A stretch of 64,000 nucleotides of DNA. It comes from Gemmatimonadales bacterium. Lineage in GTDB: Bacteria > Gemmatimonadota > Gemmatimonadetes > Gemmatimonadales > GWC2-71-9. Where the stretch lies: positions 4,849 to 68,848 of the forward strand of contig JBIOTT010000024.1 of assembly GCA_044866195.1 (NCBI GenBank), written 5' to 3'. The notes beneath the pieces are model-generated. The model had not been told where the DNA came from and searched no databases. It saw only the letters and a program-made list of their open reading frames with translations. Below, in pieces: positions 3,122 through 34,482 of this stretch (positions are counted from its first letter, which is position 1; every line of letters starts with the position of its first letter). The position numbers and the translations under genes are program-made.

Positions 3122-3151
3122 AGGTGCCCGCGGGTTCGACGGGAGGCTCCC

Positions 3152-6527: not shown

Positions 6528-7301
6528 TCACTTGGCGTCGTGGAAAATCACGCCCAGGGTGTAGCGGGTGCCGCTCCGAACCCGGCCGACGCCATGGCGG
6601 ACGTTCACCCGGTAGTATCCTCGTCCACCCTGGACCGGGCGAGTCCGGGTCGTGAAGAACACCAATCCGCCCTGCGCACCCGTCACCACCTCCGCGGCCG
6701 ACTGGGCTCGGGGGCGCTGCTCCACCAGGAGGAACTCACCCCCACGGTAATCCACCCCGGGCCGGCTCAGGAAACAGACCAGCTGCAGCGGAAAGGCCAC
6801 GTCGCCATAGAGGTCCTGGTGCAGGCAGTTGTATCCCCCCACTTCGTAGTGCAGCAGCAGCGGTGTGGGCTTGGTCTGGCCATGCGCCCGGCAACGCGCC
6901 AGAAACGCTTCGAGCGTCGGCGGGTAGCGGTCTGCCACCCCGAGCGCCTCGTTCCAGCGGTTGGCCACCGCTGCGAGTGGCGGGTATGCGTGGACCCGGA
7001 GCGCCTGGACCACCGGCGGCAGCGGTGCGGCCAGATACTTGTAGTCGCCCTCGCCGAACCGATGGCGCGCCATCTCTACCCGATGCCGGAACCGGCTCTC
7101 GTCTGGATAGAGCGCGATCAGCTCCTTGCATTCCTCGCCGCTGAGCACCGGATCCGTTTCCGCGTAGCCACGACCCCACAGATCGCGCTCGATCCGGCTC
7201 CAGTCGAGCGCCGCGATCCGCGCGGCGACCTCGGCCGATTCGGCCGACGTCCGAGCGCCGTCATGCTGGGGTGGCGCGGTCGAGGAGCTTCTACTCATCA
7301 T
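6528..7301 (-). CDS. 2OG-Fe(II) oxygenase of the type found in ada/alkA operons (non-AlkB)
   Basis: LHYEVGGYNCLHQDLYGD (HxD) and RHGVGRVRSGTRYTLGVIFHDA. The start was re-picked at the ATGATG at 7301, which overlaps the alkA stop by 11 nt. The 340-aa track ORF has an implausible Arg/Cys-rich extension. Confidence 0.75.
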   Translation of the reverse strand: MMSRSSSTAPPQHDGARTSAESAEVAARIAALDWSRIERDLWGRGYAETDPVLSGEECKELIALYPDESRFRHRVEMARHRFGEGDYKYLAAPLPPVVQALRVHAYPPLAAVANRWNEALGVADRYPPTLEAFLARCRAHGQTKPTPLLLHYEVGGYNCLHQDLYGDVAFPLQLVCFLSRPGVDYRGGEFLLVEQRPRAQSAAEVVTGAQGGLVFFTTRTRPVQGGRGYYRVNVRHGVGRVRSGTRYTLGVIFHDAK

Positions 7302-8328
7302 GGTCGGAACGGTGCAACGAGTGCCAGAGGTGCAGCGTGGCGTACCCTCGCCAGGGACGCCAGCGCTCGGCGATGGCCGACACCTCGGACCGGCGCACGC
7401 CCCGGGCGGCGAGCGCCCTGACGAGCCCGAGATCGCTCGCAAGCAACGCATCGCGATCGCCCAACGCGCGGAGCCGCAGGTACGCTGCGGTCCACGGCCC
7501 GACACCCGGCAGCGAGAGGAGCTGGCGGTCTGCCTCTTCCGGTGGCACACGGCGCAGGCCGGAGAGATTCAGCTCGCCCTTCGCGACCGCGACCGCCGCC
7601 CCGTGCACCGCAGCGGCCTTTGCGCGGGTGAGGCCGATAGTGCGGAGCTTGGCCGGCCCCAGACCCGCGATGGCGTCCGGCCGCGGGAAGGCGTAGCGCG
7701 GCCGCATGAGCGGGATGATGTCTTCCGGGGGCAGCCGGGGTGCCGGAATCGCGGCGAGTCGGACCAGACGGTCGGTCAGGGTGCGCGCCGCCGCGACGCT
7801 CACCTGCTGCCCGAGGATCGCGCGCATCAGCGCCTCGAACGGATCGAGCAGCTGCAGCAGCCTGAGACCGGGCGGATGGGCCCCGACCACCGGGCCGAGG
7901 ACTGAATCCTGCCGGGCAATTGCGGCGAACTCCCGCAGATCGGCGTCGAGATCGAACATCCGGGTCATGACCCGGCGCAACGTGGCGGCAGGCAGCTCCG
8001 GGGCCGACCGGACGATCAGCTGCGCCGAGCCCCCGCCTCCGCCCACGACCTGCCCTGCGGCGGGGAGGCTGCGATGTTGAACCGCCAGCGTCACCGCCTG
8101 CGCCTGACTGGCACCCCCGCCCCGTGGCGCGAGCTCGAGCCACACGACCCTCTCGAACCCGTCGGCGGCTATCAGCTCGAGCGATGGGACCGCGCGGGCA
8201 GCCAGAAACCGGAGCGCCCAACCGAAATCGAGCTCCGGGCCGACGTCCAAGCGCGCGGAGCCGCGCCCAGGCCGGCGTCCCTGGCCGGCCTTGATCGCAG
8301 AGGCGCGCCTAGTCACGCTGAGTCCCAT
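7291..8328 (-). CDS. alkA: DNA-3-methyladenine glycosylase II (AlkA; AlkA_N + HhH-GPD)
   Basis: HhH-GPD motif LLSLPGVGPWTAAYLRLRALGDRDALLASDLGL. Start re-picked at ATG 8328, which overlaps the ada stop at 8309. Confidence 0.85.
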   Translation of the reverse strand: MGLSVTRRASAIKAGQGRRPGRGSARLDVGPELDFGWALRFLAARAVPSLELIAADGFERVVWLELAPRGGGASQAQAVTLAVQHRSLPAAGQVVGGGGGSAQLIVRSAPELPAATLRRVMTRMFDLDADLREFAAIARQDSVLGPVVGAHPPGLRLLQLLDPFEALMRAILGQQVSVAAARTLTDRLVRLAAIPAPRLPPEDIIPLMRPRYAFPRPDAIAGLGPAKLRTIGLTRAKAAAVHGAAVAVAKGELNLSGLRRVPPEEADRQLLSLPGVGPWTAAYLRLRALGDRDALLASDLGLVRALAARGVRRSEVSAIAERWRPWRGYATLHLWHSLHRSDHDE

Positions 8329-9436
8329 CGCGACGCTGCTCGAGCGCCAGGAGCTGGCGCTTACGCTCCGGGCCCCACCGGTATCCGCCCACACCGCCGC
8401 CCTCCCGCACCACCCGATGGCAGGGAATCACGACCGCGACCCGGTTTCGCGCGCAGGCGCTTGCCACCGCGCGGACCGCCCGCGGCGCGCCGATGGACCG
8501 GGCCACCTCGGTGTAGGACCGGGTCTCGCCATAAGGGATCTCGCGGAGCGCTTGCCAGACCCTGAGCTCGAACGGTGTGCCAGCGACATCGGTCGGCACC
8601 GCTCGCGCTGGCGCCCCGTTCAGGTAACTCACGACCGCATCGAGCCACTCGCGCAGATCTGCCTGGGCCACACCGCGGTCCGGGTCGACCAGCTCGCGCT
8701 TGGCGTTGGGGTACTCGGCCGCAAGGCCGCGTTCCAGGTCGGCGTCGGTCTCGCCCAGCTGGACGGCGCAGACGCCCCGCGCCGTGGCTCCCACCAGCAC
8801 GCGACCCAGTCTGGTGGGCCGGATCGCGAACCGGATGTGCTCGCCCTGGCCGCCACGACGGTAGGCAGCCGGGGTCATGCCGAGATGCGCGCCGGCAGCC
8901 TCGTAGACCCGGCTGCTCGCGCCATAGCCCGCGTCAAACGTTGCCCGGCTCACAGTGGACCCGTCCCGGAGCGCAGCCTTGAGCCGGTCGGCGCGCAGGG
9001 CCGCGGCATAGCGCTTGGGCGAGACCCCAACCCGGCGGCTGAACGCGCGCTGCAGGTGATGGGGGCTCAGCCCGACTTCCCGCGCCAGCGTGGGAAGCGT
9101 GACCGGTTCATCCAGGTGGGCTTCGAGGAACTCGCGGGCCCGGGCCACGGCGAGGTCTATCGGCTTGGCCGCGTCCTGCGGGCGGCAGCGACGGCAGGCG
9201 CGATAGCCAGCCGCCTCCGCTGCAGCCGGCGTCGGAAAGAAGCCGACGTTCTTCCGCAGCGGCCGCCGAGAGGGGCAGCTCGGCCGGCAGTAGACGCCGG
9301 TCGTGGAGACGGCATACACGAAAGCGGCATCCCAGCGGCCGTCACGAGCGATAACGGCCGCCCAGGCCTGAGCCCCGTCGAGCCCATCGGTCAAACCAGC
9401 TGGTTGCACTGACTGCATCAGGAGAGCGGTTGCCAT
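8309..9436 (-). CDS. ada: Bifunctional Ada: methylphosphotriester-DNA methyltransferase / AraC-type activator / O6-methylguanine-DNA methyltransferase
   Basis: N-terminal Cys cluster YCRPSCPSRRP...CRRC, an AraC HTH region (LAREVGLSPHHLQRAFSRRVGVSPKRY), and the C-terminal MGMT active site IPCHRVV. Confidence 0.9.
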   Translation of the reverse strand: MATALLMQSVQPAGLTDGLDGAQAWAAVIARDGRWDAAFVYAVSTTGVYCRPSCPSRRPLRKNVGFFPTPAAAEAAGYRACRRCRPQDAAKPIDLAVARAREFLEAHLDEPVTLPTLAREVGLSPHHLQRAFSRRVGVSPKRYAAALRADRLKAALRDGSTVSRATFDAGYGASSRVYEAAGAHLGMTPAAYRRGGQGEHIRFAIRPTRLGRVLVGATARGVCAVQLGETDADLERGLAAEYPNAKRELVDPDRGVAQADLREWLDAVVSYLNGAPARAVPTDVAGTPFELRVWQALREIPYGETRSYTEVARSIGAPRAVRAVASACARNRVAVVIPCHRVVREGGGVGGYRWGPERKRQLLALEQRRDGTQRD

Positions 9437-9593
9437 ATCATCATCCCCGCAATGTAAGGGCTCGGCGCGCCACTACGCGCGCGGCATCGTCAGGGTGGAT
9501 GTTCGCCGCAGACGCGTTTGGCGGCTACCCGGATCTTGCGGCCGAATTCGAGGCACCCGCCCACGGTGTTGAGCGGGTCCCCTTCCGGGCGGG

Positions 9594-10472
9594 CTAGCGC
9601 TTTCGCCCCGCCACCAGGATCTGGTTGGGCAGGCCTACCACAGGACCGGTGAGATTGAGAAAGGCAGTCCCCGCGCTCAAGATGATCCGGCGGGTAAACG
9701 GCGTCCGGGCGAAGCGTCGAACCAGAATCCGGGTCGAGTTGCGGGAGCCCCGAGCGTCGATGACGTCGACCCCCACCGCATCGAGTGCGTTACGGAGCGC
9801 GGGGATCGTGTACCAGATCACGTGCCCGGCGCCCAGGGTCTCCTGGAGCGGGCGAGCCACCCGGCCGCCGGTGGCCTGATGGAGCAGGCGGCTCACACGG
9901 ATGAACGCCCCTGCCGGGTTCGGGGTCTCGAGGAGAAGGATGCCGCGGGGCTTGAGCACCCGGGCAATCGCGCGCAGCAGCTCGGGCGCAGACACCACGT
10001 GCTCTAGAACGCCCCACAGGGCCACGACCTCGAACGAGTTCGGCAGGAAGGGGCTTTGGAGAAGGTCGCCGGTTACGGTGGGGAATCCGGAGACTCGGCG
10101 AGCGAGGCGGGCACCGTTGCTCGTCACTTCGAGCCCAATTGGATCCCAGCCCAGCCGGCTGGCGGCTTGCAGGAATTCGCCGGAGCCGCAGCCCACGTCG
10201 AGCAACCGGCCCGGCGGAGACGCAGTCGCCCTCAAGTATCGGGCGAAGCGGCGGGCCCGGTGCGCAAAATACCGGCGTCCCTCGACGTCGCTGGAGTAGT
10301 TCTTATACTCGAACGCCGCCTCCTCGCGCAGACCGCGACCCTCCAGCCACTGGGCGCCGCACTGCCTGCAGCGGAGCAGCGACTGCCCATCATTGGACTG
10401 CAGCCTACCCGCAGAGCTGACGTCAGCGCGGCAGGCAGGGCACGTTGGCCTACCGGGAATAATCCAAGGCAC
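9594..10472 (-). CDS. Class I SAM-dependent methyltransferase with N-terminal zinc ribbon
   Basis: CPAC...CRQC ribbon. SAM motif I is LLDVGCGSGEF. GTG start. Confidence 0.8.
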   Translation of the reverse strand: MPWIIPGRPTCPACRADVSSAGRLQSNDGQSLLRCRQCGAQWLEGRGLREEAAFEYKNYSSDVEGRRYFAHRARRFARYLRATASPPGRLLDVGCGSGEFLQAASRLGWDPIGLEVTSNGARLARRVSGFPTVTGDLLQSPFLPNSFEVVALWGVLEHVVSAPELLRAIARVLKPRGILLLETPNPAGAFIRVSRLLHQATGGRVARPLQETLGAGHVIWYTIPALRNALDAVGVDVIDARGSRNSTRILVRRFARTPFTRRIILSAGTAFLNLTGPVVGLPNQILVAGRKR

Positions 10473-10499
10473 CCCCTCTCCCCCCTTACGTCTCGGTTC

Positions 10500-11591
10500 T
10501 CACTTCTTACTTCTCACCTCATCCAGGATTCTCTGGTACAGCGCGACGTGCCGCTCGGCCATCGCGGACTGGGTGAAGTGCTCCGCGACCCGGCGCTGCC
10601 CTGCCTGGCCGAGCCGCCGCCGCAGCTCGGGCTCGTGGGCCAGCGTCGCCAGCGCCTGGGCCAGCGCTGCCACGTCCCGGAGGGGAACCTCGAGCCCTGT
10701 CGTACCGGGCACGTTGACCTCGCGCACCGCGCTTGGCAGCGCCGTCGTGATGACCGGCCGGCCGGCAGCCATGGCCTCGAGCACGACCAGCCCGAACATC
10801 TCCTCCACCGTGACCGAGGGCAGAACCAGGAAGTCGGCGTCGGCCATCCGGCGCGGCAGGTCGTCGTCGGGGTATTCTCCCCACCACCGGACCCGGTCGC
10901 TCACCGCGAGGGCCTGGGCAAGGGTGCGAAGCCGAGGCAGCTCCGGTCCCGTGCCGACCACCTCGAGCCGCAGATCCGGCACCCGCTCCAGTGCTCTGAG
11001 CAGGATGTCCACACCTTTGTATGGGACCAGGCGTCCGATGAAGATGGCGCGGGCCGGCGCATCTGGCGGCGGCGGGGGCACGAAGGTCCAGCGCCGTTCA
11101 TCGATCCCAAAAGGAATCACCTCTACCTTGCCCTCGAACCCGGTCAGCTCGGTGGACAGTGCGACGTGCGCTCGACTCGGAACCACCACCGCCTTGGCGC
11201 GACGGAGGACCATGCGAGCCGACGGGCGATAGATACCCCGCCGCGCATCGGCGTGCTGGGTCACGACCACCGGGGTGCGGCGCGCCCGAAGCAGACACGC
11301 CAGATCCGCCAGGGGGTGGGGGTGATGCACGTGGATCACGTCGGCCCGCTTCCAGGCCGCCGCGATATAGCCGGGCGCGATCTCCTGGGAGCCGAGGGCG
11401 CCAAACGAAAACGCCCGCCGCACCGAGGAGCGCTGGCGCGCGGCGTCCCGCGAGCTGCCGAGCGTCGTCTCGACCGCCACGACCTCGACCTCGTGGCCGA
11501 GCGCGGCCGCCCCCTCGGCCAAGCCCTGGACGACGCGCTCCATCCCACCTGACCGCGGCCAGTAGTACTTCGCGAGATGAAGGATGCGCAT
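10500..11591 (-). CDS. Glycosyltransferase, GT4-like (GT-B fold)
   Basis: Begins MRILHLAKYYWPRSGGMERV and has the C-terminal EEMFGLVVLEAMAAGRPVI motif. Start re-picked at ATG 11591. Confidence 0.85.
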   Translation of the reverse strand: MRILHLAKYYWPRSGGMERVVQGLAEGAAALGHEVEVVAVETTLGSSRDAARQRSSVRRAFSFGALGSQEIAPGYIAAAWKRADVIHVHHPHPLADLACLLRARRTPVVVTQHADARRGIYRPSARMVLRRAKAVVVPSRAHVALSTELTGFEGKVEVIPFGIDERRWTFVPPPPPDAPARAIFIGRLVPYKGVDILLRALERVPDLRLEVVGTGPELPRLRTLAQALAVSDRVRWWGEYPDDDLPRRMADADFLVLPSVTVEEMFGLVVLEAMAAGRPVITTALPSAVREVNVPGTTGLEVPLRDVAALAQALATLAHEPELRRRLGQAGQRRVAEHFTQSAMAERHVALYQRILDEVRSKK

Positions 11592-11862
11592 ACTTATTGA
11601 ACCGCCAAGTTGCCCAGGACTGCTGATGCCTGTCAACCAGTGAGCTGCGTTCCCCCTCAGACCGGAGTGACGCCGCCCCTCGTGGCCGGGTCCTTAGCCT
11701 GGTGATCGGAGGCGCAATACCTTGACGCGGATTCACTTACTACTGATGTTTGGCGCCTACATGCCTGGAATCTCTCCGCACCGCGGCCTGCCGTTCTGCT
11801 GGTGGGCCCCCGTTGCTTTATTGCTCACCGCCGGCCCTCCGTTCGCCGCCCAGACCATCCGG
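11547..11862. repeat. Copy A of a segmental duplication (partner pieces at 17180-17285, 17790-17835 and 18371-18533)
   Basis: Aligned by eye. 11562-11652 matches 17195-17285 with 3 mismatches. 11653-11699 matches 17790-17835. 11700-11766 matches 18371-18437. Weaker similarity continues to about 11862/18533. Confidence 0.85.
11653..11721 (+). pseudogene. Relic of a GT4 glycosyltransferase gene (paralog of 17290..18396), reduced to two short pieces
   Basis: Only a 47-nt internal piece and the last ~22 nt of the intact gene are retained. The equivalents of 17286-17789 and 17836-18370, including the start codon, are missing. Confidence 0.65.
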
Positions 11863-11991
11863 GTCTCGCTGGATCCGAGCGGGGTGTCCACCGACGTGGG
11901 GAATCGCGGCGGGCTCATCACGATCTCGGTCTGGGATCGGGATCCCGGGCTGGCCGCCGGGGCTGCGCCCGGCGAGCCGGCCGCGGGCTGA
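11722..11991 (+). pseudogene. Truncated paralog of the export-protein N-terminus (89-codon ORF; possibly a small secreted protein)
   Basis: MTRIHLLLMFGAYMPG...PPFAAQ parallels LTRIHLPVMFRAQMPP...TPVAAQ of the 18393 gene. It then diverges and stops at 11991. Confidence 0.4.
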
Positions 11992-12008
11992 GCCCGCTGG
12001 TTCGGTTC

Positions 12009-13220
12009 ATGCCGCCCCTCCGACTGCTGGTCTTCTCCAGGGTCACCGAGGCTCACGGTGCAGGCGGGATGCAACTCCACCTCTCGTGGGCCTTGCGCTG
12101 GCTGGCCGACGCCGGCGCCGACATCACGCTGGTGACGACCGTCGGGGGCGCCCTCCCGCCGGAATCCGGTGCTCGCTCGGTCGAGCTGCCGGGAACCCGG
12201 CCCGGCCGATACAGCCGGAGCTGGTGGCGCAGCACCCGTCGCTTCGTTCGTGATCGTCCGCTCTCGGCGTGGGACGCCATCCTGAGCGAGGACAGCGGCG
12301 CTTGGGGAGTCGTCGAAGAATTGCGGCGCGACCCGAACCGGCCGCCCATCGCAATGTTTCGCCACGGCACAACCCTGGCGACGATTCGGAGCTGCATCCC
12401 GCCGCGCAACCCGCGCGCCGTCGGCATGGCCATGGTGGCGTTCCGCGATTATCTCCGTCACCCGCGCCGTCTCGCCCGCTCGGTCGACCTGATGATTGCG
12501 GTCTCGGAGAAAATCGCCGGCAGCGCGCGCGTGGAGGGGGCTGGATCGCAAACCGAGATCCGGGTCGTGCGGCTGGGCGTGGACCTCAGGCGCTTCTCGC
12601 CCAGCGCAGACATGGCCGACGACCGCCGCGCGCTCGGGCTCGACCCGGCGCTCCCAACGTTCACCTGGGTCGCACGGGATTCGCTCACCAAGCGAGTCCA
12701 TCTCGCCCTGCGGGTGGTTGACCGGCTCTCCGCGCGGGGCGTCCCATGCCAGATTGCGCTCGCGGTGGCCAAGCCGCGTCAGGCCACCCTCGCGCTCGCG
12801 GACGCGTTGAACCGTCGCCATGGCCCGCGGGTCCATTTGTTTCCGGATGCAGACCAGAGCCGGGTTCGCCTGATCCACCGCGCGTCGAGCTGTCACCTCT
12901 TTCCATCGTGCTGGGCCGAGGGTCTGCCCATCACGATCATGGAAGGGTTGGCGTGCGGAGCGCCGGTCCTCGCGTGGGACGGTCCCTCCTTTCGCGATCT
13001 GGACGTGTTTCGCGTACATCCGGATTGGCTGGTGCACTCGAGCCGGGCGGACGACTGGGCGGACCGCGCCCTGGCGAGCCTCCGGAGTGAGGGGATGGCT
13101 GACAGGCGAGCCTCGGCGCGAACCATCGCCGAGCGCTACTACGACATCGACACCACGGCCCGGAGCACTGTCGCCGCGATCAAAGAACTCATCGAGCGAT
13201 GGGCACGACGGGATCGCTGA
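12009..13220 (+). CDS. Glycosyltransferase, GT4-like
   Basis: Begins MPPLRLLVFSRV and has the C-terminal CWAEGLPITIMEGLACGAPVLAW motif. Start re-picked at ATG 12009. Confidence 0.8.
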   Translation: MPPLRLLVFSRVTEAHGAGGMQLHLSWALRWLADAGADITLVTTVGGALPPESGARSVELPGTRPGRYSRSWWRSTRRFVRDRPLSAWDAILSEDSGAWGVVEELRRDPNRPPIAMFRHGTTLATIRSCIPPRNPRAVGMAMVAFRDYLRHPRRLARSVDLMIAVSEKIAGSARVEGAGSQTEIRVVRLGVDLRRFSPSADMADDRRALGLDPALPTFTWVARDSLTKRVHLALRVVDRLSARGVPCQIALAVAKPRQATLALADALNRRHGPRVHLFPDADQSRVRLIHRASSCHLFPSCWAEGLPITIMEGLACGAPVLAWDGPSFRDLDVFRVHPDWLVHSSRADDWADRALASLRSEGMADRRASARTIAERYYDIDTTARSTVAAIKELIERWARRDR

Positions 13221-13227
13221 CCGCGTC

Positions 13228-14799
13228 GTGAAAGGCCTTCCCTGGCGCAGCGCCGCCCTCGTCATGCTGGGAGCGTTGGTCGGCCGGGTGCTCGGTATTG
13301 GGCGCGAGGCCGCGTTCGCCCATTACTTCGGAGCGGGATTCCTCACCGACGCCTATTTCGTGGCGGTGCTGATCCCGGTGCTCGTCAACAGCGTCGTGGC
13401 GGGCGGCAGCCTGCAGGCTGCGTTCGTGCCGATGGTCGCCGACGAGGCGGCACACCGGGGACGGGCGGCAGCCAACCAGATGGTGGCCGATCTCGCGTTG
13501 CTCACCACCCTCGGCCTTACGGCGGTAGCGCTAGTCGTGGCCGTACTCGCGGAGCCGATCGTCCGGGTGACGGCAAGCGGCTTCTCGGCCGAGGCAGTGA
13601 CCGCGGCAGCAACGATGCTCCGCTGGTGCGCGGTGCTCGTGGTGCTCAACGGTTTCCTCGCTGTCGCGCTCGGCGCGCTGAACACGTTCGGCGAGTTCGC
13701 GACAACGGCATCGCTCTCGCCCCTGCTCAACGCCGTGCAGATCGTAGCCATCGTGGTGCTCGCACCATGGCTCGGCATTCGCGCGGCGGTGGTCGGCCTG
13801 CTGGCCGGGACGGTGGCGCAGTGCCTGTTCCAGATCATTCCATTGCGCCGGCATGGCGTGAAGCTGTCGCGTCCGCACTTATCGCTCGCGCTCTGGCGCC
13901 GGCTCCTGCCTGGCTTTGTCCCGGCAGCACTCGCCTCACTGGTCGCTCAGGCCAACCCACTTGCCGACAAGGTGATCGGCTCCTATCTCACCGCCGGCAG
14001 CATCAGCTATCTGAACTATTCCGAGCTTTTCGCCGGCGGCGTGGCGATCGTGACCACGAGTGTGGCGCTGGTGATATTTCCCACGATGTCCACTGCGCTG
14101 GCCGAGGGTGACCCGGACCGGGCGCTCGCGGTGCTTCGCCAGGCCGCGCACGTCAATCTCCTCACCGCAGTGCCCGCCGCATTGCTGCTCGGAGCCTTCG
14201 CGCCCGACGTGGTGCGCGTCGTGTACGGCTGGGGGCGCCTCTCGCCCGCCGACTTGAATCAAGTCGCGCGATGCCTGCTCGCCTATTCGGCCGGCATCCC
14301 GGTCACCGGGCTATTCTATCTTCTCGTGCGCGCCTGCTACGCGATCAAGCGGCCCGGCTTTGCCATCCTGCTCACCGGCACGTTCTTCCTCGTGCATGCC
14401 GCTATCGGACTGGCGCTCGCGCCTCGCCTCGGGGCCGCGGGCCTGGCCATCGGCACCGCGAGTGGCGCACTGTTCACCGGGCTGGGTGGGTGGTTTGTCC
14501 TCCGGAGCGACCTGCTGCGCCGCGCCGGCGCCGACACGGTGCGCTGGCTTCTGCGGCTCGGCGCAATCGCCGCGGTCGCCATGGTCGTGCCGGCGGCGTT
14601 GCTTCGTCCCTGGTCATACGTCGGCTCGGCGACCGGCTCGCTCTGGCGGCTCCCGCTCGCCATCACGATCGGCGCACTCGTGCTCGTGCCCCTGGTGCGC
14701 CGCGCCGATCCCGAGTCGCATCGCGTGCTCGAGCGGGCCTGGAAGCGGCTGTTGGCTCCCCTCCGCACGCCACCGGTGGAGTCGAGCCCGCCGAATTGA
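13228..14799 (+). CDS. MurJ/MviN family lipid-linked oligosaccharide flippase
   Basis: The N-terminus LPWRSAALVMLGALVGRVLGIGREAAFAHYFGAGFLTDAYFVA is MurJ-typical, and the protein is polytopic. GTG 13228 was chosen just after the upstream stop. Confidence 0.8.
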   Translation: MKGLPWRSAALVMLGALVGRVLGIGREAAFAHYFGAGFLTDAYFVAVLIPVLVNSVVAGGSLQAAFVPMVADEAAHRGRAAANQMVADLALLTTLGLTAVALVVAVLAEPIVRVTASGFSAEAVTAAATMLRWCAVLVVLNGFLAVALGALNTFGEFATTASLSPLLNAVQIVAIVVLAPWLGIRAAVVGLLAGTVAQCLFQIIPLRRHGVKLSRPHLSLALWRRLLPGFVPAALASLVAQANPLADKVIGSYLTAGSISYLNYSELFAGGVAIVTTSVALVIFPTMSTALAEGDPDRALAVLRQAAHVNLLTAVPAALLLGAFAPDVVRVVYGWGRLSPADLNQVARCLLAYSAGIPVTGLFYLLVRACYAIKRPGFAILLTGTFFLVHAAIGLALAPRLGAAGLAIGTASGALFTGLGGWFVLRSDLLRRAGADTVRWLLRLGAIAAVAMVVPAALLRPWSYVGSATGSLWRLPLAITIGALVLVPLVRRADPESHRVLERAWKRLLAPLRTPPVESSPPN

Positions 14800-14839
14800 C
14801 CTCGGACCGCCCATTCCACGATCGCTAGACCATAGATTA

Positions 14840-14889
14840 GAATTGCTGATTAGCCCCTAGCATGGAATTGCTGATTGGCCCCTAGCATG
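14840..14889 (+). repeat. 25-bp tandem duplication containing a start codon
   Basis: gaattgctgattagcccctagcatg (14840-14864) is followed by gaattgctgattggcccctagcatg (14865-14889), with 1 mismatch. Confidence 0.9.
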
Positions 14890-15681
14890 GAAGGCAAGAT
14901 GGGCACCCACAGTGGGGTACCCCAGACTACATTGCCGGACTCTTGCGAGAGACCCCGCGCCTCTCTCGACGACCAGTTCCTCGCTTGGCGTCGACTGGGC
15001 GCCGTCCAAAAGGCTCAATCCATTATGAGATTGACCGAGCCTGGCCCAACTCTCGAGGCACATGCTTCGTCAGGGATTTCCGAGGTGATTGAAATAGGCG
15101 CCGGGACCGGAGCAATTCTGCAAGAGCTGTCCCCGAAACGACCCCATTGGAACCTGACAGCGGTCGACCTCGCGGAGGAGAACATTGCAGCGATCAGGCG
15201 GCTCCGCCTGCGGAACCTTAGAACGAGTCAGGTTGCTGACGCCGAGCACCTTCCTTTCCCAGACAAACGCTTCGACCTGGCAATACTATCCCATGTCATT
15301 GAGCATCTCCCGGATCCGGCCGCTGGCCTTTGCGAGGCCAGGCGCATCGCGCGTCTGCTGCTAATCGAAGTTCCGGTTGAGGGTACCCCGGTGCTCGACC
15401 TGGTCTGGTTCGTCCGCAAGCACCGTGGACGGAACCGCGTGCCCAATGACCTAGGGCACCTGTGGCACTACTCTGTACGTGAGTGGAACCGGGTCATCGC
15501 GGCAGCCGGGCTCACAATCATCGGACGGCTCCAATACTTGCTCACGCGCGAGGTCCTTCTCTTCGGCAAGTCCGGTCGTGCGCTGCAGCTGGCTCGAATC
15601 CGAGCCACTGGACAGTCGCTGTTCGGCACCAAGATCTGGGGGAATTTGGTGCACAGCCATTACGCTGTGCTAGCCACATGA
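14887..15681 (+). CDS. Class I SAM-dependent methyltransferase
   Basis: SAM motif VIEIGAGTGAIL, plus FDLAILSHVIEHLPDP. The start is taken at the second duplicated ATG and is uncertain. Confidence 0.75.
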   Translation: MEGKMGTHSGVPQTTLPDSCERPRASLDDQFLAWRRLGAVQKAQSIMRLTEPGPTLEAHASSGISEVIEIGAGTGAILQELSPKRPHWNLTAVDLAEENIAAIRRLRLRNLRTSQVADAEHLPFPDKRFDLAILSHVIEHLPDPAAGLCEARRIARLLLIEVPVEGTPVLDLVWFVRKHRGRNRVPNDLGHLWHYSVREWNRVIAAAGLTIIGRLQYLLTREVLLFGKSGRALQLARIRATGQSLFGTKIWGNLVHSHYAVLAT

Positions 15682-15718: not shown

Positions 15719-16420
15719 GTGCCTTCCGAATCAAAGCTGGTCTCGCGGCTCCAGCGCACCTGGCTCAACCCATTCCACATCGTCAGCGCCGCGCTCGAAC
15801 GGGGCCTGGCGCGCCATAGCGGTCAGCTCCGCGGACGGGTGCTCGACATCGGCTGTGGAACCAAGCCGTATCGACGGCTCTTTCCGGCCGCGACCCAGTA
15901 CGTCGGCACCGAGACCAACCGGACCTTCACCCGCGACACGCGGCACGACGTGACCGCCTTCGGCGAGGCGCTGCCGTTCCGCAACGGCGCGTTCGATGCC
16001 GTAATCTGCACGGAGGTGCTGGAGCACGTGCCCGAGCCAAGCGACTTCCTGCACGAGGTGTTTCGAGTGACTACACCGGGTGGGGTTCTGCTGCTCACCA
16101 CGCCGCAGACTTGGGGACTGCACGAGGAGCCCTACGACTTCTACCGGTACACCAAGTACGGGCTGCAGCACCTCTTCGGCAAGGTAGGCTTCGAGATGGT
16201 GGACATTTCCCCAACGACCGGGACGCTGGGGACTGTAGGACAACGCCTCAGCTCGTTCTTTTACTACCGACTCGGCGGTCGCACCCGCGCTCTCAAACCG
16301 CTGGCGGTCGTCATCTGCGCCGGGATACAGCTCACCTTCGCCGCCGCCGACCGGCTCGCGCGGCGGCAGGGCGACACGATCAACTGGATCGTTCTGGGCC
16401 GCCGCCCACCTAGCGCTTGA
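15719..16420 (+). CDS. Class I SAM-dependent methyltransferase (Methyltransf_11-like)
   Basis: VLDIGCGTKPY, plus FDAVICTEVLEHVPEP. GTG start. Confidence 0.8.
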   Translation: MPSESKLVSRLQRTWLNPFHIVSAALERGLARHSGQLRGRVLDIGCGTKPYRRLFPAATQYVGTETNRTFTRDTRHDVTAFGEALPFRNGAFDAVICTEVLEHVPEPSDFLHEVFRVTTPGGVLLLTTPQTWGLHEEPYDFYRYTKYGLQHLFGKVGFEMVDISPTTGTLGTVGQRLSSFFYYRLGGRTRALKPLAVVICAGIQLTFAAADRLARRQGDTINWIVLGRRPPSA

Positions 16421-17147
16421 CCCCGATCCGTCCGGTGTAGTCGATGCGATTGAGCAGCAGCGGGATCCCGTGAGTCGCGAGGTACTCGTCGGTCGCCCTG
16501 CGCGCACCCTGCCAGTGCCCATAGTCATCGATGATGATCACACCACCGCTGACCAGCCGGGGGTACAGGTGCACGAGCTCGTGGCGGGTCGATTCGTACC
16601 AATCGGTATCAAGCCGGAGCAGGCTGATCTGGTCAGGGGCCTGTGCTGGCAGGGTGTCTTCTACCTTCCCTTTGACAAAACGGACTCGCGACGGATCGAT
16701 CCCTGTGCCCAGCACGGCGCTCTGCACCTGCTCCAGGGGCGCGCGGGCCCAGATCCGCCCCCGGCGGCCAGTGGTCGATTCGGCGAGCTGCGCGGCGGCA
16801 CCCGTTCCTCGGAAATCGAGGTCGGCGTCTGTTGGTTGGGTCATCCCCTCAAAGGTATCGAACAGGTACAGTTGGCGATCCCGATCACCCAGCCGCAACA
16901 GCGTGAGGGCAATCGCCATCACCGTCCCGCCCTTCCACACTCCACACTCGACGACGTCGCCAGGAATCCCGTTCGCTCCCAGGTACTCCACCGCGCGCAC
17001 GCAGCTGTAGATCCGCTCGGGCGACGTGAGCGTATAGGGCTGCACCCGCCGCACTAGTGCAGCATCATCGGCCGAGAAGTCGGGAGGAATGCGCCGGGTA
17101 AGCTGATACCCGACCGTCGCCAATAACCGCTGCGCGAGCTCTCTCAT
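16410..17147 (-). CDS. TylF/MycF-family (macrocin-type) O-methyltransferase
   Basis: GDVVECGVWKGGTVM, LYLFDTFEGM and LRLDTDWYESTRHELVHLYPRLVSGGVIIIDDY. Confidence 0.85.
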   Translation of the reverse strand: MRELAQRLLATVGYQLTRRIPPDFSADDAALVRRVQPYTLTSPERIYSCVRAVEYLGANGIPGDVVECGVWKGGTVMAIALTLLRLGDRDRQLYLFDTFEGMTQPTDADLDFRGTGAAAQLAESTTGRRGRIWARAPLEQVQSAVLGTGIDPSRVRFVKGKVEDTLPAQAPDQISLLRLDTDWYESTRHELVHLYPRLVSGGVIIIDDYGHWQGARRATDEYLATHGIPLLLNRIDYTGRIGVKR

Positions 17148-17224
17148 GCTGCACGTCCCTGCGGCCGCGCGGATAATGCTCCTGACCAGGGCCTGTAGTA
17201 CTTCGCGAGATGAAGGATGTGCAT
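17144..17224 (-). pseudogene. 26-codon relic of the GT4 gene 5' end (paralog of 10500..11591); its stop overlaps the TylF-MT start codon
   Basis: Manual translation gives MHILHLAKYYRPWSGALSARPQGRAA*. The first 10 codons are near-identical to MRILHLAKYY at 11591. Its TGA shares two nucleotides with the ATG at 17147. Confidence 0.6.
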
Positions 17225-17285
17225 ATTTATTGAACCGCCAAGTTGCCCAGGACTGCTGATGGCTGTCAACCAGTGAGCTGCGTTC
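17180..17285. repeat. Copy B (first segment) of the segmental duplication
   Basis: See the 11547-11862 feature. The coordinate offset to copy A is 5633 nt for this segment. Confidence 0.85.
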
Positions 17286-17289
17286 GCCG

Positions 17290-18396
17290 GTGAGGGCGAT
17301 TATCGTCTCCCGCCTCTATGGGGACGGGGCGACTCGGGGAAAGCTGCGCGCGCTCGCCGGCCTTGGCTGCACGATCGGCGCCGTGGTTCCGGCATCGTGG
17401 CAGCCGGCTCCGGGCGACCCCCCTCGAGCAACCACGTTCGGGGATGATGCCGGCGTTCGGATCTTCCCCGCCGCCGTTCGCGGCATCGACCCGGAGCTCA
17501 CCTGGGATGCGGCCGCGCTTCGGCGAGCACTGGCCGAGTTCCGCCCCGACGTGGTGCAGGTCGAGGAGGAGCCGTCGAGCCAGGTCGCCGCCGCCGTTCT
17601 TCGGGCCGCTCGCCGGCTCGACTTTAGGGTGACGGTCTTCTCCTGGGAAGGGCTCCCCGCCCGCCTCCCCTTGCTGGCGCGGTTGCGGCGCGATCGCGTG
17701 CTGCGCCATTCGGCCGGTCTCATTGGAGGAAACCGGCTCGCGCTCGACCTGCTCGGTCGGAACCAGGCTGGGCGGCCGACCACCGTGATCCCCCAGACCG
17801 GAGTGACCCCGCCCCTCGTGGCCGGGTCCTTAGCCAGACCAGGCCTCGCGATCGGATTCGTCGGCCGTCTGGTACCCGAGCGGGGCCTGGATCTGCTGTT
17901 TCGCGCCTGCGTCCAGCTGAGCGACGCCTGGTCGGTCCACGTCGCCGGCACGGGCCCCGCCCAGGAAGAGCTCGAAGGGCTCGCCGAGCGCCTCGGGATC
18001 GCCGCCCGGGTGACTTGGCACGGCGCGCTTTCCCGACCGGCCCTTGCCGCACTCTGGCCGGGGCTCGACTGCGCGGCCTTTCCGTCCCGCACGACCCCTC
18101 GCTGGATCGAAACCCGGGGCCGCACGGTCCTCGACGCGATGGCCAACGGGCTCGCGGTCGTCGTCAGCGCCTCGGGCGCCCTGCCCGAGGTGGTGGGGCC
18201 GGCGGGAAAGGTCGTTCCCGAGGAGGGAGTGGATCAGTTGGCGGAGGTCCTCCGCGCCTTTGCCCGGGACCCGGAGTCTCGGCACGCCCTCGGTGCGGAA
18301 GCCCGGCGCCGAGTGCTCGCGGAATACACCGACGAATCCATCGCCCAACGAACGTTGGCCTTCTGGCGAGCGGTGAGCGGAGGCGCAAACCCTTGA
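17290..18396 (+). CDS. Glycosyltransferase, GT4-like
   Basis: 368 aa with a GTG start. GT-B pattern with AAFPSRTTPRWIETRGRTVLDAMANGLAVV. Confidence 0.85.
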   Translation: MRAIIVSRLYGDGATRGKLRALAGLGCTIGAVVPASWQPAPGDPPRATTFGDDAGVRIFPAAVRGIDPELTWDAAALRRALAEFRPDVVQVEEEPSSQVAAAVLRAARRLDFRVTVFSWEGLPARLPLLARLRRDRVLRHSAGLIGGNRLALDLLGRNQAGRPTTVIPQTGVTPPLVAGSLARPGLAIGFVGRLVPERGLDLLFRACVQLSDAWSVHVAGTGPAQEELEGLAERLGIAARVTWHGALSRPALAALWPGLDCAAFPSRTTPRWIETRGRTVLDAMANGLAVVVSASGALPEVVGPAGKVVPEEGVDQLAEVLRAFARDPESRHALGAEARRRVLAEYTDESIAQRTLAFWRAVSGGANP

Positions 18397-21008
18397 CGCG
18401 GATTCACTTACCGGTGATGTTTCGGGCCCAAATGCCTCCCACGCCCCCTCGCCGCGGCCCGCGTTTTCCCCGCTGGGCCTTTGTTCTCGGCTTGCTCAGC
18501 ATCAGCACTCCAGTCGCCGCGCAGATTCCGGGACTTCCGCCGGGCGCGCACCCGAGCCCTCAGGAAGTCCAGACCCTACTCGAGACGCGGCCCGACCTCG
18601 TCGCACAGCTGCAGCAGCGAATCGCAGAATCCGGTCTCACTGCCGATCAGATTCACGCGCGCCTCAGGGCCGCCGGTTACCCTGAGGACCTGCTCGACGC
18701 CTACATCGGCGGCGCGGACACGACGACAGCCCTTCCCACACCAACGACCGGCCAGCTGGGCGCGCTCGGCGCGCTCGGACTTCTCACGCTCAGCGCCGAC
18801 ACCCTAGGCCAGCCGGATTCGCTCGATATGCTGGCCCCACCCAGCCGGCAGGCGGACTCACTCCGGGCTGATTCGCTGGCGGACTCCACGGCGGCAAGAG
18901 GTCGGCTCAAGCGCTTCGGCATCGATGTCTTTCGGCGCGCCAGCACCCGGTTCCAGGCGCTTCAGTCCGGCCCGGTCGATCGCAACTACCGGCTGGGCGC
19001 CGGCGACCTCCTCGTCCTGATCATGACCGGCGACGTCGAGTCCACCAGAACCTTGGAGGTCAACCGCGAGGGGTTCATCGTCCTCCCTCAGGTAGGCCAG
19101 GTGTACGTTGCCAACCTGACGCTCGGTCAACTCGAGGACGAGCTCTACACCCGACTCCGACGAGTGTACTCCGGCGTACGCCGCGGTCCCAACCCCCGGA
19201 CCCGCTTTTCGATCACGGTGGCTCGCCTCCGCAACATTCAGGTGTACGTCGTGGGAGACGTGGTCCGTCCTGGAGCGTATCAGATCTCGGCGGCCGGCAC
19301 CGTGCTTACTGGACTCTATGCCGCGGGCGGCCCGACCGAGAACGGCGGTTTCCGGCGGATCGAAGTCCGCCGGGGTGGGACTCTGGTCGACTCGGCGGAC
19401 GTGTACGACTATCTCCTGCGCGGCATCAGCCGGACCGATGTTCACTTGGAGCCCGGTGACGTGATCTTTGTGCCGACCCGCGGACCCCTGGTGGCGGTTA
19501 CCGGCCGAGTGGTGCGGCCCGCAATCTACGAGATCAAGCCGGCCGAGACGCTGCGCGACGTGGTGGCCGCGGCGGGTGGCCTCGATGCCAGCGCCGTGGA
19601 AGGCAGAATCCAGATCAACCGGATTCTCGCCCGCCCGGCAGGCGAGTCCGGCGGCCAGCAGCGGGTCGTGATCGACGTCGCCAATGCGGGGGTTCCATCC
19701 GCCGAGATTCCGGCCTTCCCGCTCATGCCTGGGGACTCGATCCAAGTGTTCGAAGTGCCGGCGCATGTGCGTGCTTTTGTCAGCGTGAGAGGTAACGTGT
19801 TGCTCCCCGGAAAGGTCGGGTTCACCGAGGGGATGAAGCTGAGCGACGCCGTGCGTCTCGCCGGGGGGCCCAAACCAGATGTCTACCTGGGCCGGATCCT
19901 GGTGTCCCGTCTTCGCCCCGATTCGAGCCGGGTGCAGCTCCACTCTGCCTTTGCCGACACCGTCGGGCGAGTGACCGAGGATCTGGTGCTCCAGGACGGT
20001 GACGACATCCATGTGTTCTCGCGCTCGACCTTCCGAGCGCAACCGTGGATCACTATCGTCGGGGCGGTGCGGCACTCGGGGCGCGTGCCCTACCGGGAAA
20101 ACCTCACGCTGCGAGACGCCGTTCTGCTGGCCGACGGGCTTACCGAGGATGCCGTGCTCGACTCGGTGGAGATCGCGCGGCTTCCGCTGGACCGGCCCAC
20201 GGGCGCGCTGGCGCAGACCCTCCACGTGTCGCTCGATTCGAGCTACGCTGTAACCCAATCGGGTTCGAACGGGCTGCCGAAGCCGGGGCAGGATGTCGTG
20301 CTCCAGCCCTACGACAATGTCCTGATCCAGCGCCGTCCGGGATGGGATCTCCAGAGACTGGTCTCAATCACGGGGCAGGTCGAGCGACCTGGTCGCTATG
20401 CTCTCACCAGCAAGACCGAGCGCCTGTCCGACCTCCTCGGCCGCGCTGGAGGCCTGACGACTGAAGCCTACGCCGGGGGCATCCAGTTCTATCGGCGATC
20501 CGAGACCGCGCGGCCGGTCGCGCAACCGGCCGACCCCAAGGTTCCGATCCAGCCGCTGCCGCCCGGATTCGCCGCGCGGGTGGGCGTGGACCTCCCTGCC
20601 GTGCTCAAGAATCCTCGGTTCCGCGACAACCTCATCCTCACGGGGGGCGACTCGATCTTCATCCCGGAGTTCAATCCGCTGGTGCAGGTTCAGGGCTCGG
20701 TGAATGCGCCCGGACCGGTCGCATACACGCCGGGAAAGGACCTGGACTGGTACGTTGGGGCGGCGGGCGGCTACGCCCAGAAGAGCGACCGGGGCCGGGC
20801 GTTCCTCACTCAGCCTGACGGCAAGCGGCAGGTGGTGCATCGCCGATTCTTCTTCAGCGACGACGTGCCCGCGCCGCGGGCCGGCGCCGTGATCACAGTC
20901 CCCGAGCGGACCGGAGGCCAGCCAGGAAGCAATACGGCGACGGTCCTGGGCGTGCTGGGCTCGGTACTGGCCAGCCTTACGACGGTGATCGTGGTGCTCA
21001 AGCGGTGA
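18393..21008 (+). CDS. Large polysaccharide export protein (Poly_export domain plus multiple SLBB domains, C-terminal TM helix)
   Basis: YRLGAGDLLVLIMTGD...NREGFIVLPQVGQVYVANLTLGQLEDELYTRL (Wza-type), with repeated (Y/I)xLxPGDxIxVP SLBB-like units. The start is TTG 18393 or ATG 18417, after the upstream GT stop. The track start at 18015 was rejected. Confidence 0.85.
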   Translation: MTRIHLPVMFRAQMPPTPPRRGPRFPRWAFVLGLLSISTPVAAQIPGLPPGAHPSPQEVQTLLETRPDLVAQLQQRIAESGLTADQIHARLRAAGYPEDLLDAYIGGADTTTALPTPTTGQLGALGALGLLTLSADTLGQPDSLDMLAPPSRQADSLRADSLADSTAARGRLKRFGIDVFRRASTRFQALQSGPVDRNYRLGAGDLLVLIMTGDVESTRTLEVNREGFIVLPQVGQVYVANLTLGQLEDELYTRLRRVYSGVRRGPNPRTRFSITVARLRNIQVYVVGDVVRPGAYQISAAGTVLTGLYAAGGPTENGGFRRIEVRRGGTLVDSADVYDYLLRGISRTDVHLEPGDVIFVPTRGPLVAVTGRVVRPAIYEIKPAETLRDVVAAAGGLDASAVEGRIQINRILARPAGESGGQQRVVIDVANAGVPSAEIPAFPLMPGDSIQVFEVPAHVRAFVSVRGNVLLPGKVGFTEGMKLSDAVRLAGGPKPDVYLGRILVSRLRPDSSRVQLHSAFADTVGRVTEDLVLQDGDDIHVFSRSTFRAQPWITIVGAVRHSGRVPYRENLTLRDAVLLADGLTEDAVLDSVEIARLPLDRPTGALAQTLHVSLDSSYAVTQSGSNGLPKPGQDVVLQPYDNVLIQRRPGWDLQRLVSITGQVERPGRYALTSKTERLSDLLGRAGGLTTEAYAGGIQFYRRSETARPVAQPADPKVPIQPLPPGFAARVGVDLPAVLKNPRFRDNLILTGGDSIFIPEFNPLVQVQGSVNAPGPVAYTPGKDLDWYVGAAGGYAQKSDRGRAFLTQPDGKRQVVHRRFFFSDDVPAPRAGAVITVPERTGGQPGSNTATVLGVLGSVLASLTTVIVVLKR

Positions 21009-21033
21009 CCACCGACCCCTGAGCCGCGTTCAG

Positions 21034-21843: not shown

Positions 21844-21848
21844 TAGAT

Positions 21849-22970: not shown

Positions 22971-22976
22971 GACGAA

Positions 22977-24077: not shown

Positions 24078-24088
24078 CTGAATTCACC

Positions 24089-25636: not shown

Positions 25637-25720
25637 GGAGATCCCAAGGTGAGAACCGGTGAACAGCTGGCAATCTCGGTGCCACGATGAGTTCGGGCCT
25701 GTGGCGTCCAACGTGTAGCA

Positions 25721-26869: not shown

Positions 26870-26913
26870 GACTCACCCGATCGCAGTTGGCGCGACGCGA
26901 GGCGGGCACCCCA

Positions 26914-29078: not shown

Positions 29079-29105
29079 GCCTCTCCCTGTGGGCTTCCGC
29101 CCACC

Positions 29106-32831: not shown

Positions 32832-32833
32832 CG

Positions 32834-34463: not shown

Positions 34464-34482
34464 GGTCAAGCGCGGGTCAAGC
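34464..34482. promoter_or_regulatory. Direct repeat GGTCAAGC-N3-GGTCAAGC (11-bp period)
   Basis: Seen at 34464-34471 and 34475-34482 in the 566-bp intergenic region. The spacing is typical of winged-helix response-regulator sites. Confidence 0.3.

Follow-up and report, generated by a model that had tools for sequence, protein, structure and literature searches.

Genes and features of the locus

The window, the whole 64-kb stretch of DNA analyzed, comes from an uncultured-organism assembly and harbors a locus in which genes for OPX export, a PCP (Wzz/GNVR), a MOP/MurJ flippase and GT4 glycosyltransferases occur together, as assigned by Pfam. The intact genes of the locus are as follows.

10500..11591, minus strand: GT4minus, intact left arm of a divergent gene pair (Pfam Glycos_transf_1/Glyco_transf_4)
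12009..13220, plus strand: K1, GT4 glycosyltransferase that opens the retained downstream block (Pfam)
13228..14799, plus strand: K2, MurJ/MOP-family flippase-like (Pfam MurJ, 9.7e-65)
14875-15681, plus strand: K3, class I SAM methyltransferase (Pfam)
15719-16420, plus strand: K4, class I SAM methyltransferase (Pfam)
16410..17147, minus strand: K5, TylF-family O-methyltransferase (Pfam TylF, 1e-46)
17290..18396, plus strand: GT4plus of module B, intact (Pfam)
18393..21008, plus strand: OPX-type export gene of module B, intact (Pfam Poly_export+SLBB)
23133-24083: Wzz+GNVR protein (Pfam)

Relatives of the window, all of them MAGs, are designated here by L numbers. The GT4minus protein is 91-96% identical to those of close relatives. 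Orthologues of K1 lie directly after a Wzz-like gene in L115 (82% amino acid identity), L126 (73%) and L004 (56%), those of K2 are found in L113, L004 and L126, and those of K4 in L001 (75%), L007 (80%) and L126 (79%). K5 is transcribed away from the nearby control block (copy B, below); its orthologue closes the L126 locus (79%) and another is present in L001. When TylF was used as a query against metagenomes, the best of the matches listed reached 65%, and none of the listed loci shares a second gene with the window. The window gene at 21849-22970 has no Pfam match and is 66% identical to an L120 gene that carries Wzy_C. The Wzy gene present between K1 and MurJ in L126 is missing from the window.

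A direct repeat flanks the five genes K1-K5

According to the initial annotation, GT4-MurJ-MT-MT-TylF is flanked on both sides by directly oriented copies of a decayed segmental duplication. The repeat is real, and Pfam confirms the gene content. Self-BLASTN of the window returns three same-strand, collinear matches between 11548-11866 (copy A) and 17181-18535 (copy B), placing the copies in direct orientation; a separate repeat search agrees.

Match 1: A 11548-11655 = B 17181-17288, 108 nt, 93.5%, E 2.5e-42
Match 2: A 11654-11699 = B 17790-17835, 46 nt, 95.7%, E 1e-15
Match 3: A 11701-11866 = B 18372-18535, 166 nt, 71%, 1 gap, E 2.3e-17

Self-BLASTN detects nothing comparable elsewhere in the 64 kb, and inverted repeats in the 10-20 kb interval are limited to short, chance-level matches. 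The 108-bp repeat contains 7 mismatches, with longest perfect tracts of 35, 25 and 23 nt, and in principle offers the substrate for recombination that had been suggested. Exactly three mismatches fall within 11562-11652 (at 11587, 11593 and 11629), reproducing the count first reported. The repeat does enter the minus-strand GT4 gene, but for about 15 codons, to 11548, and not the 10 or so proposed. Two short pieces of GT4plus follow in copy A, as described, and then the diverged copy of the export N-terminus (71%); copy A does not end at 11862, however, since the relic reaches a stop codon at 11989-11991. The three matches imply deletions of 501 and 535 bp, close to those originally proposed, but two deletions do not suffice: copy A requires at least five, and more are needed in copy B.

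Dating two events from the uneven divergence between the copies (94-96% versus 71%) was considered and rejected. The N-terminal segment of the export gene carries no timing signal because it is hypervariable even between intact orthologues (73% identity between copy B of the window and that of L116, 71% between L115 and L001).

Copy A is a collinear series of gene relics

Comparison with relatives resolves copy A into the following pieces.

11548..11655: control block of copy A, comprising the first 44 nt of GT4minus and the 64-nt divergent intergenic region
11654..11699, plus strand: GT4plus interior relic, 95.7% identical to 17790-17835 and 96% to L115 2529-2573
11700..11721, plus strand: GT4plus 3'-end relic, 18/22 identical to 18371-18392
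11722..11991, plus strand: chimeric 89-codon relic ORF (blastp against intact proteins; nucleotide matches to L115, L118, L126 and L002)
11722-~11853, plus strand: part 1 of the ORF, export codons 1-44
11848-11880, plus strand: part 2, internal export gene, aa ~599-609
11882-11961, plus strand: part 3, Wzz-like gene, aa 152-176
11989-11991, plus strand: TGA at the end of the tail, the native Wzz-like stop by its position relative to L115, 17 nt before the K1 ATG

The start codon of GT4plus is deleted in copy A, and hence 11654-11699 is not translated from its native start. The Shine-Dalgarno sequence of the export gene, GGAGG, sits within the GT4plus 3'-end relic at 11708-11712. The relics at 11848-11880 and 11882-11961 are revealed only by comparison with relatives, and by blastp against intact proteins all pieces of the ORF stay in their native frame. 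The pieces follow the order of L115 (870-2027, 2529-2573, 3110-3218, 4950-4982, 6210-6285, 6778-), and the same collinearity is found against L126. The 33-nt export relic shares 94% identity with L115 and 79% with copy B of the window itself, and the Wzz-like relic is 87% identical to L115. The 316-bp stretch first flagged is what erosion has left of a duplicate of the control region and of glycosyltransferase, export and chain-length genes. For annotation, this means that the 89-codon ORF has to be treated as a chimeric relic, not as a gene family, and the GT4 'fragments' as pseudogene pieces.

Copy B and the junction beside TylF

17148..17180: junction zone, native TylF upstream sequence to ~17159, then a 21-nt orphan segment (17160-17180)
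17181..17288: control block of copy B, a 44-nt relic of the GT4minus 5' end (17181-17224) and the intergenic region

Homology of the window to L116 ends at 17159. The minus strand of copy B contains a 26-codon ORF, from an ATG at 17224 to a TGA at 17144-17146, and this stop codon shares bases with the ATG of TylF. The idea of a conserved translated leader for TylF was rejected: the ATGA overlap belongs to the native start of TylF, and the corresponding ORF of the sister lineage (below) is out of frame and stops early. The GT4minus relic of copy B has private replacements (R2H, W11R and R13W) at otherwise conserved GT4 residues; therefore coding constraint has been lost there. Farther downstream, no relic follows the export stop codon of copy B, and homology to Wzz-bearing relatives ends within 2 nt of it.

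Ancestral order in single-module relatives

Relatives with a single module display the order GT4minus<-P->GT4plus-Export-Wzz-like-GT4-(Wzy)-MurJ-MT-MT-<TylF, which L126 carries whole on one contig and L115, L118, L004 and L002 carry in part. In the synteny map, GT4minus and GT4plus are adjacent in 10/10 relatives that possess both genes. Because single-module relatives share this order, the supposed five-gene cassette is the native downstream part of the first module. The relics of copy A are collinear with the ancestral order as well; therefore the K1-K5 block is native, and what changed is that the core was doubled and then partly lost.

A sister lineage carries both junctions and other relics

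A sister lineage at about 90% nucleotide identity carries junction A (L110-L114, five assemblies) and junction B (L116/L117). The assemblies are independent (JGI, ENA and NCBI), and contigs tile at 100% over 239 nt. Divergence from the window at 4-fold sites is ~0.16-0.22. The arrangement predates the split of the two lineages because both junctions are shared, and the event is not recent, as had been assumed.

The relic pieces differ between the lineages. L110A keeps export aa 273-314, and the window keeps export aa ~599-609 and the Wzz-like piece; the core of the GT4plus interior relic is also present in L110A, with different borders. In that 46-nt fragment, divergence between the two relic lineages is low (1/34, P = 0.007). 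In both lineages a Shine-Dalgarno sequence and a TTG start lead into a single ORF with all recognizable pieces in native frame, and although the junctions differ, both leader ORFs terminate at the shared native stop (TGA versus TAA). The export relic of the sister lineage matches copy B of that lineage at 98% identity. What looks like a frameshift in the sister export gene is no sign of a pseudogene but a scaffold gap, written as a run of N.

In copy B, about 390 bp of relics remain in the sister lineage where the window has the 21-nt orphan. L116 1913-2298 holds remnants of the methyltransferase g9594m (aa 237-256) and of GT4minus (aa 232-261). Because sister copy B keeps these relics of the GT4minus interior and of the left-hand methyltransferase, the doubled unit measured ~12 kb or more. 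Each copy thus retains remnants of the genes lost there: GT4plus, Export and Wzz-like in copy A, and the GT4minus 5' end in copy B, together with internal GT4minus and g9594m in L116.

Module B is a mosaic

Sliding identity reveals a sharp switch of affinity at ~18500-18550, at export codon ~45, from L115-like upstream to L119/L120-like downstream. Module B of the window is 83-95% identical to L115 up to ~18530 and 59-76% thereafter. The export protein of module B is 77-84% identical to those of L119/L120 versus 66-69% to those of L115/L001/L002, and the protein clades agree. The layout Export-O-MT-<Wzy-<Wzz/GNVR of 18393-25720 in the window recurs collinearly in L119 and L120 (L120: export protein 77%, O-methyltransferase 65% identical); contigs of the L119/L120 type begin inside GT4plus. 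By these affinities, module B is a recombinant. The control block and GT4 fragment, 92-98% identical to everything, are uninformative on the kinship of copies A and B.

Origin of the arrangement

The arrangement probably arose by an old doubling of the locus core, with a recombinant downstream allele and reciprocal, piecemeal loss; copy A is the gutted 5' end (11547-11991) of the first module, once a complete core of control region, GT4plus, OPX export protein and Wzz-like protein. The ancestral single locus had the order methyltransferase(g9594m)<-GT4minus<-P->GT4plus-Export-Wzz-like-GT4(K1)-MurJ-MT-MT-<TylF. A unit of ~12 kb or more, spanning at least from inside g9594m to just upstream of TylF, would have been doubled in tandem before the window and its sister diverged. 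Beyond the 5' part of its export gene, the downstream copy now has a different allele, consisting of a clade-II export gene, O-methyltransferase, <Wzy and <Wzz/GNVR, which recombination would have attached near export codon 45. The doubling may have occurred either by in-situ tandem duplication plus allelic replacement or by one-step stacking of a second allele. Redundant genes would then have been lost reciprocally through many small deletions: in copy A, GT4plus before the lineages split and Export and Wzz-like afterwards, independently in each lineage; in copy B, g9594m and GT4minus. As a net result, the K1-K5 block now lies upstream of GT4plus-Export, with each arm facing one copy of the control block.

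One alternative is an in-situ tandem duplication with random loss and no foreign DNA, in which g9594m..TylF was doubled and the second copy lost Wzz-like-K1..K5 through a single clean deletion with its edge precisely at the export stop; its ancestor would have read Export-Wzz-like-K1..K5, followed by the O-methyltransferase/Wzy/Wzz region. The complementary relics of the two copies and the 94-96% identity of their control blocks and GT4 fragments fit this history, as does the 98% identity of the sister export relic to its own copy B, for which the favored account has to assume gene conversion in addition. K1, the Wzz-like relic and the 33-nt export relic, however, resemble the L115-type module, to whose clade the export gene of module B does not belong, and the sharp breakpoint lies at ~18500; the clade placement of the export relic rests on those 33 nt, all relics being short. 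Export-O-methyltransferase adjacency also occurs in L120 and L119, and is therefore an established allele rather than a fresh deletion product. The absence of any relic after the export stop of copy B is unlike all other losses in the region. Duplication without foreign DNA is accordingly judged unlikely.

The initial annotation proposed a recent rearrangement or cassette insertion; in its insertion form, a foreign five-gene cassette would have entered the divergent promoter region, with target duplication, and would be readily lost by recombination between the repeats. Direct repeats do flank the block, no cassette separates GT4minus from GT4plus in the relatives, and the GC content of K3-K5 is lower (0.63-0.65). 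Yet L126, L115 and L004 have these five genes, with order and orientation unchanged, downstream of GT4plus-Export-Wzz-like, and the loci of L126 and L115 already contradict an insertion; copy A includes internal export and Wzz-like relics, and the relics in sister copy B extend the duplicated unit far beyond a promoter region. By Pfam, the block consists of glycosyltransferase, flippase and methyltransferase genes only, with no mobility gene, and the arrangement is older than a split with ~0.17-0.22 synonymous divergence. An insertion is very improbable. A chimeric or collapsed metagenomic contig is barely credible: repeats can mislead assemblers, and both the window and its relatives derive from uncultured organisms, but copies that differ by 7/108 mismatches and multiple internal deletions are no assembler product, and both junctions recur in the independent, tiling assemblies of the sister lineage.

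Comparison with known systems

Polysaccharide loci are already known to contain gene remnants, and the event is of a known kind, without a new molecular system. The likeness to O-antigen and capsule loci of E. coli, Salmonella and Yersinia pseudotuberculosis lies in short glycosyltransferase, processing or export relics that persist after recombination between locus forms. The Abe module of Y. pseudotuberculosis contains a tyv remnant left by a recombination event (PMC5399914). The present relics differ in that they stem from doubling of a whole core with complementary losses, are common to a sister lineage and hence old, and belong to an uncultured soil Gemmatimonadales host.

The tandem-duplication/random-loss model of gene-order change is classically invoked for animal mitochondrial genomes. 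The shared features are a multi-gene unit present twice in tandem, loss of one copy of each redundant gene, repositioning of a block, and pseudogene relics that mark the intermediate. Here, in contrast, the setting is a bacterial chromosomal locus, the downstream copy is another allele beyond export codon ~45, and the Wzz-like gene of copy A was lost without a replacement of the same type. Allelic replacement in serotype switching likewise leaves a sharp clade switch inside a conserved gene at the edge of a variable region. Normal serotype switching replaces the old variable region, but here the old region (K1-K5) is kept beside the new one. Homology-facilitated illegitimate recombination, reportedly described in transformable bacteria by de Vries and Wackernagel in 2002, resembles the present case in its second junction without homology (TylF upstream/g9594m relic). 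Wzx/Wzy-dependent loci with OPX and PCP proteins share Poly_export+SLBB, Wzz/GNVR, a MOP/MurJ flippase, several GT4s and methyltransferases; they serve as context, and no new pathway component is claimed.

The locus provides a well-documented example of polysaccharide-locus remodeling in an uncultured soil phylum, with two alternative locus forms stacked and redundant export and chain-length genes eroded stepwise. The order of events can be read directly because the ancestral state, the derived state and a sister with other relics are all represented. The outcome is a hybrid locus in which a retained control-region copy, a putative promoter, would drive expression of the old modification and flippase block.

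Conservation of the control block and expression of K1-K5

Conservation in the region is highest in the ~110-bp control block, which peaks at 0.90-0.98 across 11 intact loci and is retained in all four relic copies. Between the window and its sister, the copy A block shows 3/104 mismatches versus a neutral expectation of ~0.19 (P = 8e-7); the export N-terminal relic of copy A is 24% diverged, which is about neutral. A second peak in the intact loci (0.88-0.92 at 18381-18400) covers the export ribosome-binding site and start. The 46-nt GT4plus fragment was rejected as an embedded cis-element, since it shows no peak across 11 intact genes (0.65-0.76). A consensus scan of copy A (11.4-12.1 kb) found no sigma-70-like promoter or terminator, and Rfam families gave no match in 10.4-18.7 kb. 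By its position and conservation, the surviving block is inferred to hold both putative divergent promoters, which makes it a candidate regulatory element for Gemmatimonadales surface-polysaccharide genes.

K1 has no Shine-Dalgarno sequence of its own. The copy A block would drive K1-MurJ via the translated in-frame leader ORF, which would carry ribosomes as far as the native Wzz-like stop, 17 nt short of K1, and the copy B block would drive TylF. On a further reading, less likely than not, copy A would have been kept by selection as a minimal expression module consisting of the control block, the export Shine-Dalgarno and start, and an in-frame spacer to the Wzz-like stop. K1 would then rely on upstream ribosomes, through translational coupling or avoidance of Rho polarity, and the independent Export and Wzz-like deletions in the two lineages would both have been limited to those that are net in-frame. 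Statistically, the argument from reading frame is modest, at about (1/3)^3 to (1/3)^5, and ORFs are common in DNA of 69% GC; the locus lends itself to testing whether selection acts on in-frame decay within operons. If selection did maintain such a module, the four relic copies would form a natural deletion map that confines both divergent promoters to about 110 bp.

Repeat structure and native gene order

Self-BLASTN of the 64-kb window and a repeat search concur in three collinear direct matches between a relic, copy A (11548-11991), and its downstream counterpart, copy B (from 17181), with no further self-BLASTN match of comparable level. The count of three mismatches in 11562-11652 in the initial annotation is exact, and its gene content is borne out by Pfam.

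Matches between copy A and copy B (self-BLASTN, direct) and neighboring genes (Pfam)
11548-11655 to 17181-17288: 93.5%, 108 nt, E 2.5e-42
11654-11699 to 17790-17835: 95.7%, 46 nt, E 1e-15
11701-11866 to 18372-18535: 71%, 166 nt, E 2.3e-17
10500-11591, minus strand: glycosyltransferase GT4 (GT4minus)
12009-13220: GT4 (K1)
ending at 14799: MurJ-like gene (K2)
14875-15681 and 15719-16420: two class I methyltransferases (K3, K4)
16410-17147, minus strand: TylF (K5)
17290-18396: GT4 (GT4plus)
18393-21008: Poly_export+SLBB export protein (Export)

A genome-collection scan with GT4plus as the query places the window among uncultured soil Gemmatimonadales. GT4minus adjoins GT4plus-Export across a ∼65-bp spacer in 10 of 10 relatives having both genes. 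One contig, L126, carries an entire single module: Ada and GT4minus lead leftward from a control block (the 5' end of GT4minus plus the divergent spacer), and GT4plus, Export, a 332-aa gene, K1, Wzy, MurJ, two methyltransferases (the second K4) and an inverted TylF follow to its right. K1, K4 and TylF of L126 are 73%, 79% and 79% identical to those of the window, and L115 (K1 82%), L118 and L004 share this gene order over their available extent. The K1-K5 genes, initially read as an inserted cassette, are thus native rather than foreign. The 332/333-aa gene gave no match in a Pfam search; it is labeled Wzz-like because its L002 homologue resembles the Wzz/GNVR gene of the window (23133-24083; 25% identity, E 1e-16). 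The Wzy of L126, a 462-aa Wzy_C polymerase encoded between K1 and MurJ (8761-10149), has no counterpart at this junction (13220/13228) in the window, the sister lineage or L004. L011 (JBLMWC010000143.1) is labeled a Bacillota MAG, likely through mis-binning; its locus is Gemmatimonadales-like (GT4minus 80%) and syntenic with window 36-42 kb.

Anatomy of copy A

The pieces of copy A were mapped by alignment to the intact L115 module, with an equivalent picture from L126, L118 and L002.

Window pieces and their L115 equivalents
10498-11655 to 870-2027: GT4minus and control region
11654-11698 to 2529-2573: GT4plus interior
11700-11808 to 3110-3218: GT4plus 3' end and Export 5' end
11848-11880 to 4950-4982: Export interior, 94%
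11882-11957 to 6210-6285: Wzz-like interior, 87%
12008-13224 to 6778-7994: K1

Because the pieces are collinear with the intact module, the K1-K5 block is the sequence that came next after GT4plus-Export-Wzz-like. The stepwise alignment requires at least five deletions rather than the two clean ones proposed earlier, and the relic is longer and more fragmented.

Identity between the copies is uneven, with 9/154 mismatches in one part vs 46/166 in the other (P = 1e-7). This contrast was rejected as dating two events, since even intact orthologues are hypervariable in the N-terminal segment of Export, which is 73% identical between copy B of the window and of the sister lineage, and 76%, about the neutral level, between the two relic versions. 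No other DNA in the region is as conserved as the control block (0.90-0.98 mean pairwise identity across 11 intact loci), which differs at only 3/104 positions between the relic lineages (P = 8e-7 against neutral). Its 64-nt divergent intergenic region (11592-11655, 17225-17288) exceeds any coding part of the locus in cross-species conservation; inspection by eye shows an imperfect inverted repeat in it, TTGCCCAGG-N10-CCTGTCAA. Neither a sigma-70 consensus nor an Rfam match turned up at the control block.

Age and order of loss

The rearrangement had been called recent. Both junctions occur in a sister lineage of ∼90% nucleotide identity, diverged by 0.16-0.22 at 4-fold sites of GT4minus, K1, K4 and TylF, so the arrangement is old. 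Junction A was found in five assemblies from JGI, ENA and NCBI (L110-L114) and junction B in L116/L117; L113 and L116 are identical (100%) over a 239-nt overlap, reconstructing the entire double module, and these independent assemblies exclude an assembly artefact.

The sister relic has the control block and GT4plus core as in the window, with slightly different borders. Of Export it retains aa 273-314; the pieces kept by the window, export aa ∼599-609 and Wzz-like, are missing from it. As both lineages keep one GT4plus core, the GT4plus deletion in module A predates their split; as the residual pieces differ, Export and Wzz-like of that module were still mostly there when the lineages parted and later eroded independently. 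The shared core of ∼35 nt (11654-11699; L110 2059-2108) has 1/34 mismatch between relics (P = 0.007 against neutral) and no special conservation among intact genes.

Between TylF and GT4plus lie 503 bp in the sister and 142 bp in the window. The longer spacer of the sister preserves remnants of GT4minus (aa 232-261) and the methyltransferase gene to its left, g9594m (aa 237-256), each 90% at the protein level. Because of these relics, the doubled unit spanned at least the stretch from within g9594m to a point immediately upstream of TylF; its intact form would have measured about 12 kb or more. In the window, a 21-nt orphan (17160-17180) separates copy B from the native sequence upstream of TylF; it lacks homology to the ∼390 bp of relics in the sister and was presumably left behind by a later deletion.

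Origin of copy B

One classical way for gene order to change is duplication followed by random loss. A pure history of this kind is disfavoured here, as it requires a deletion that stops precisely at the end of Export and leaves no relic, and as it conflicts with the export proteins, which form two clades: copy B is 84% identical to L119, 77% to L120 and 66-69% to L115/L001/L002. Around export codon 45 (about 18500-18550), sliding identity switches sharply; copy B matches L115 at 83-95% upstream and 59-76% downstream, where it is L119/L120-like, and sister L116 switches affinity in the same way. L119 and L120 share the layout of window 18393-25720 (Export, O-methyltransferase, inverted Wzy and Wzz/GNVR). 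The window relic, in turn, is L115-like (export piece 94% vs 79% to its own copy B; Wzz-like piece 87%). The clades, breakpoint, layout and relics together show that the downstream module carries another allele of the locus, acquired either by doubling and a later swap or by stacking of a second allele in one event.

A complication for this reading is the 125-nt sister relic export piece (L110 2324-2448 vs L116 4330-4456), which matches the intact copy B of its own lineage at 98% and that of the window at 87%, implying recent gene conversion (favoured) or late deletion in that lineage. GT4plus (17290-18396 vs L116 2403-3509) shows a 4-fold-site divergence of 0.41, about twice that of GT4minus, K1, K4 and TylF, which suggests that module B recombined again once the lineages had split. 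A second variable region of lower GC (0.62-0.65 at 21-26 kb) occupies 21034-34700; in L009 and L011, homologues of window 34.7-42 kb come immediately after the export gene, and in L119 and L120 its place is taken by homologues of 21034-25720.

Recombination is known to leave gene remnants as footprints in O-antigen and capsule loci (PMC7685785, PMC5399914). The relics are likewise gene remnants within a polysaccharide locus, a clear new example of known processes and no new kind of system. The 108-bp repeats (longest perfect tracts 35, 25 and 23 nt) could still delete the 5.6-kb block, as initially suggested. That two lineages have kept the block speaks for such loss being rare or disfavoured by selection.

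Retained signals

In both lineages, copy A keeps the control block and the export gene GGAGG and TTG start, a second conservation peak. It forms a single ORF of 89 codons in the window and 113 in the sister, with all recognisable pieces in native frame and a stop at the native Wzz-like position (TGA vs TAA), 17-18 nt before K1, which lacks a Shine-Dalgarno. K1-MurJ would now take its promoter and translation signals from copy A, and TylF from copy B. Selection for ribosomes reaching K1 may underlie the in-frame erosion of copy A, with modest statistics; the B-side leader is not conserved. Between MurJ and K3 (14826-14890), just upstream of K3, an AT-rich 25-nt unit, TAGNCCNTAGNNTNGAATTGCTGAT, is repeated in tandem ∼2.6 times within a genome of 69% GC, against just one similar copy in the sister lineage; this repeat may give K3-K4 a promoter or operator of their own.
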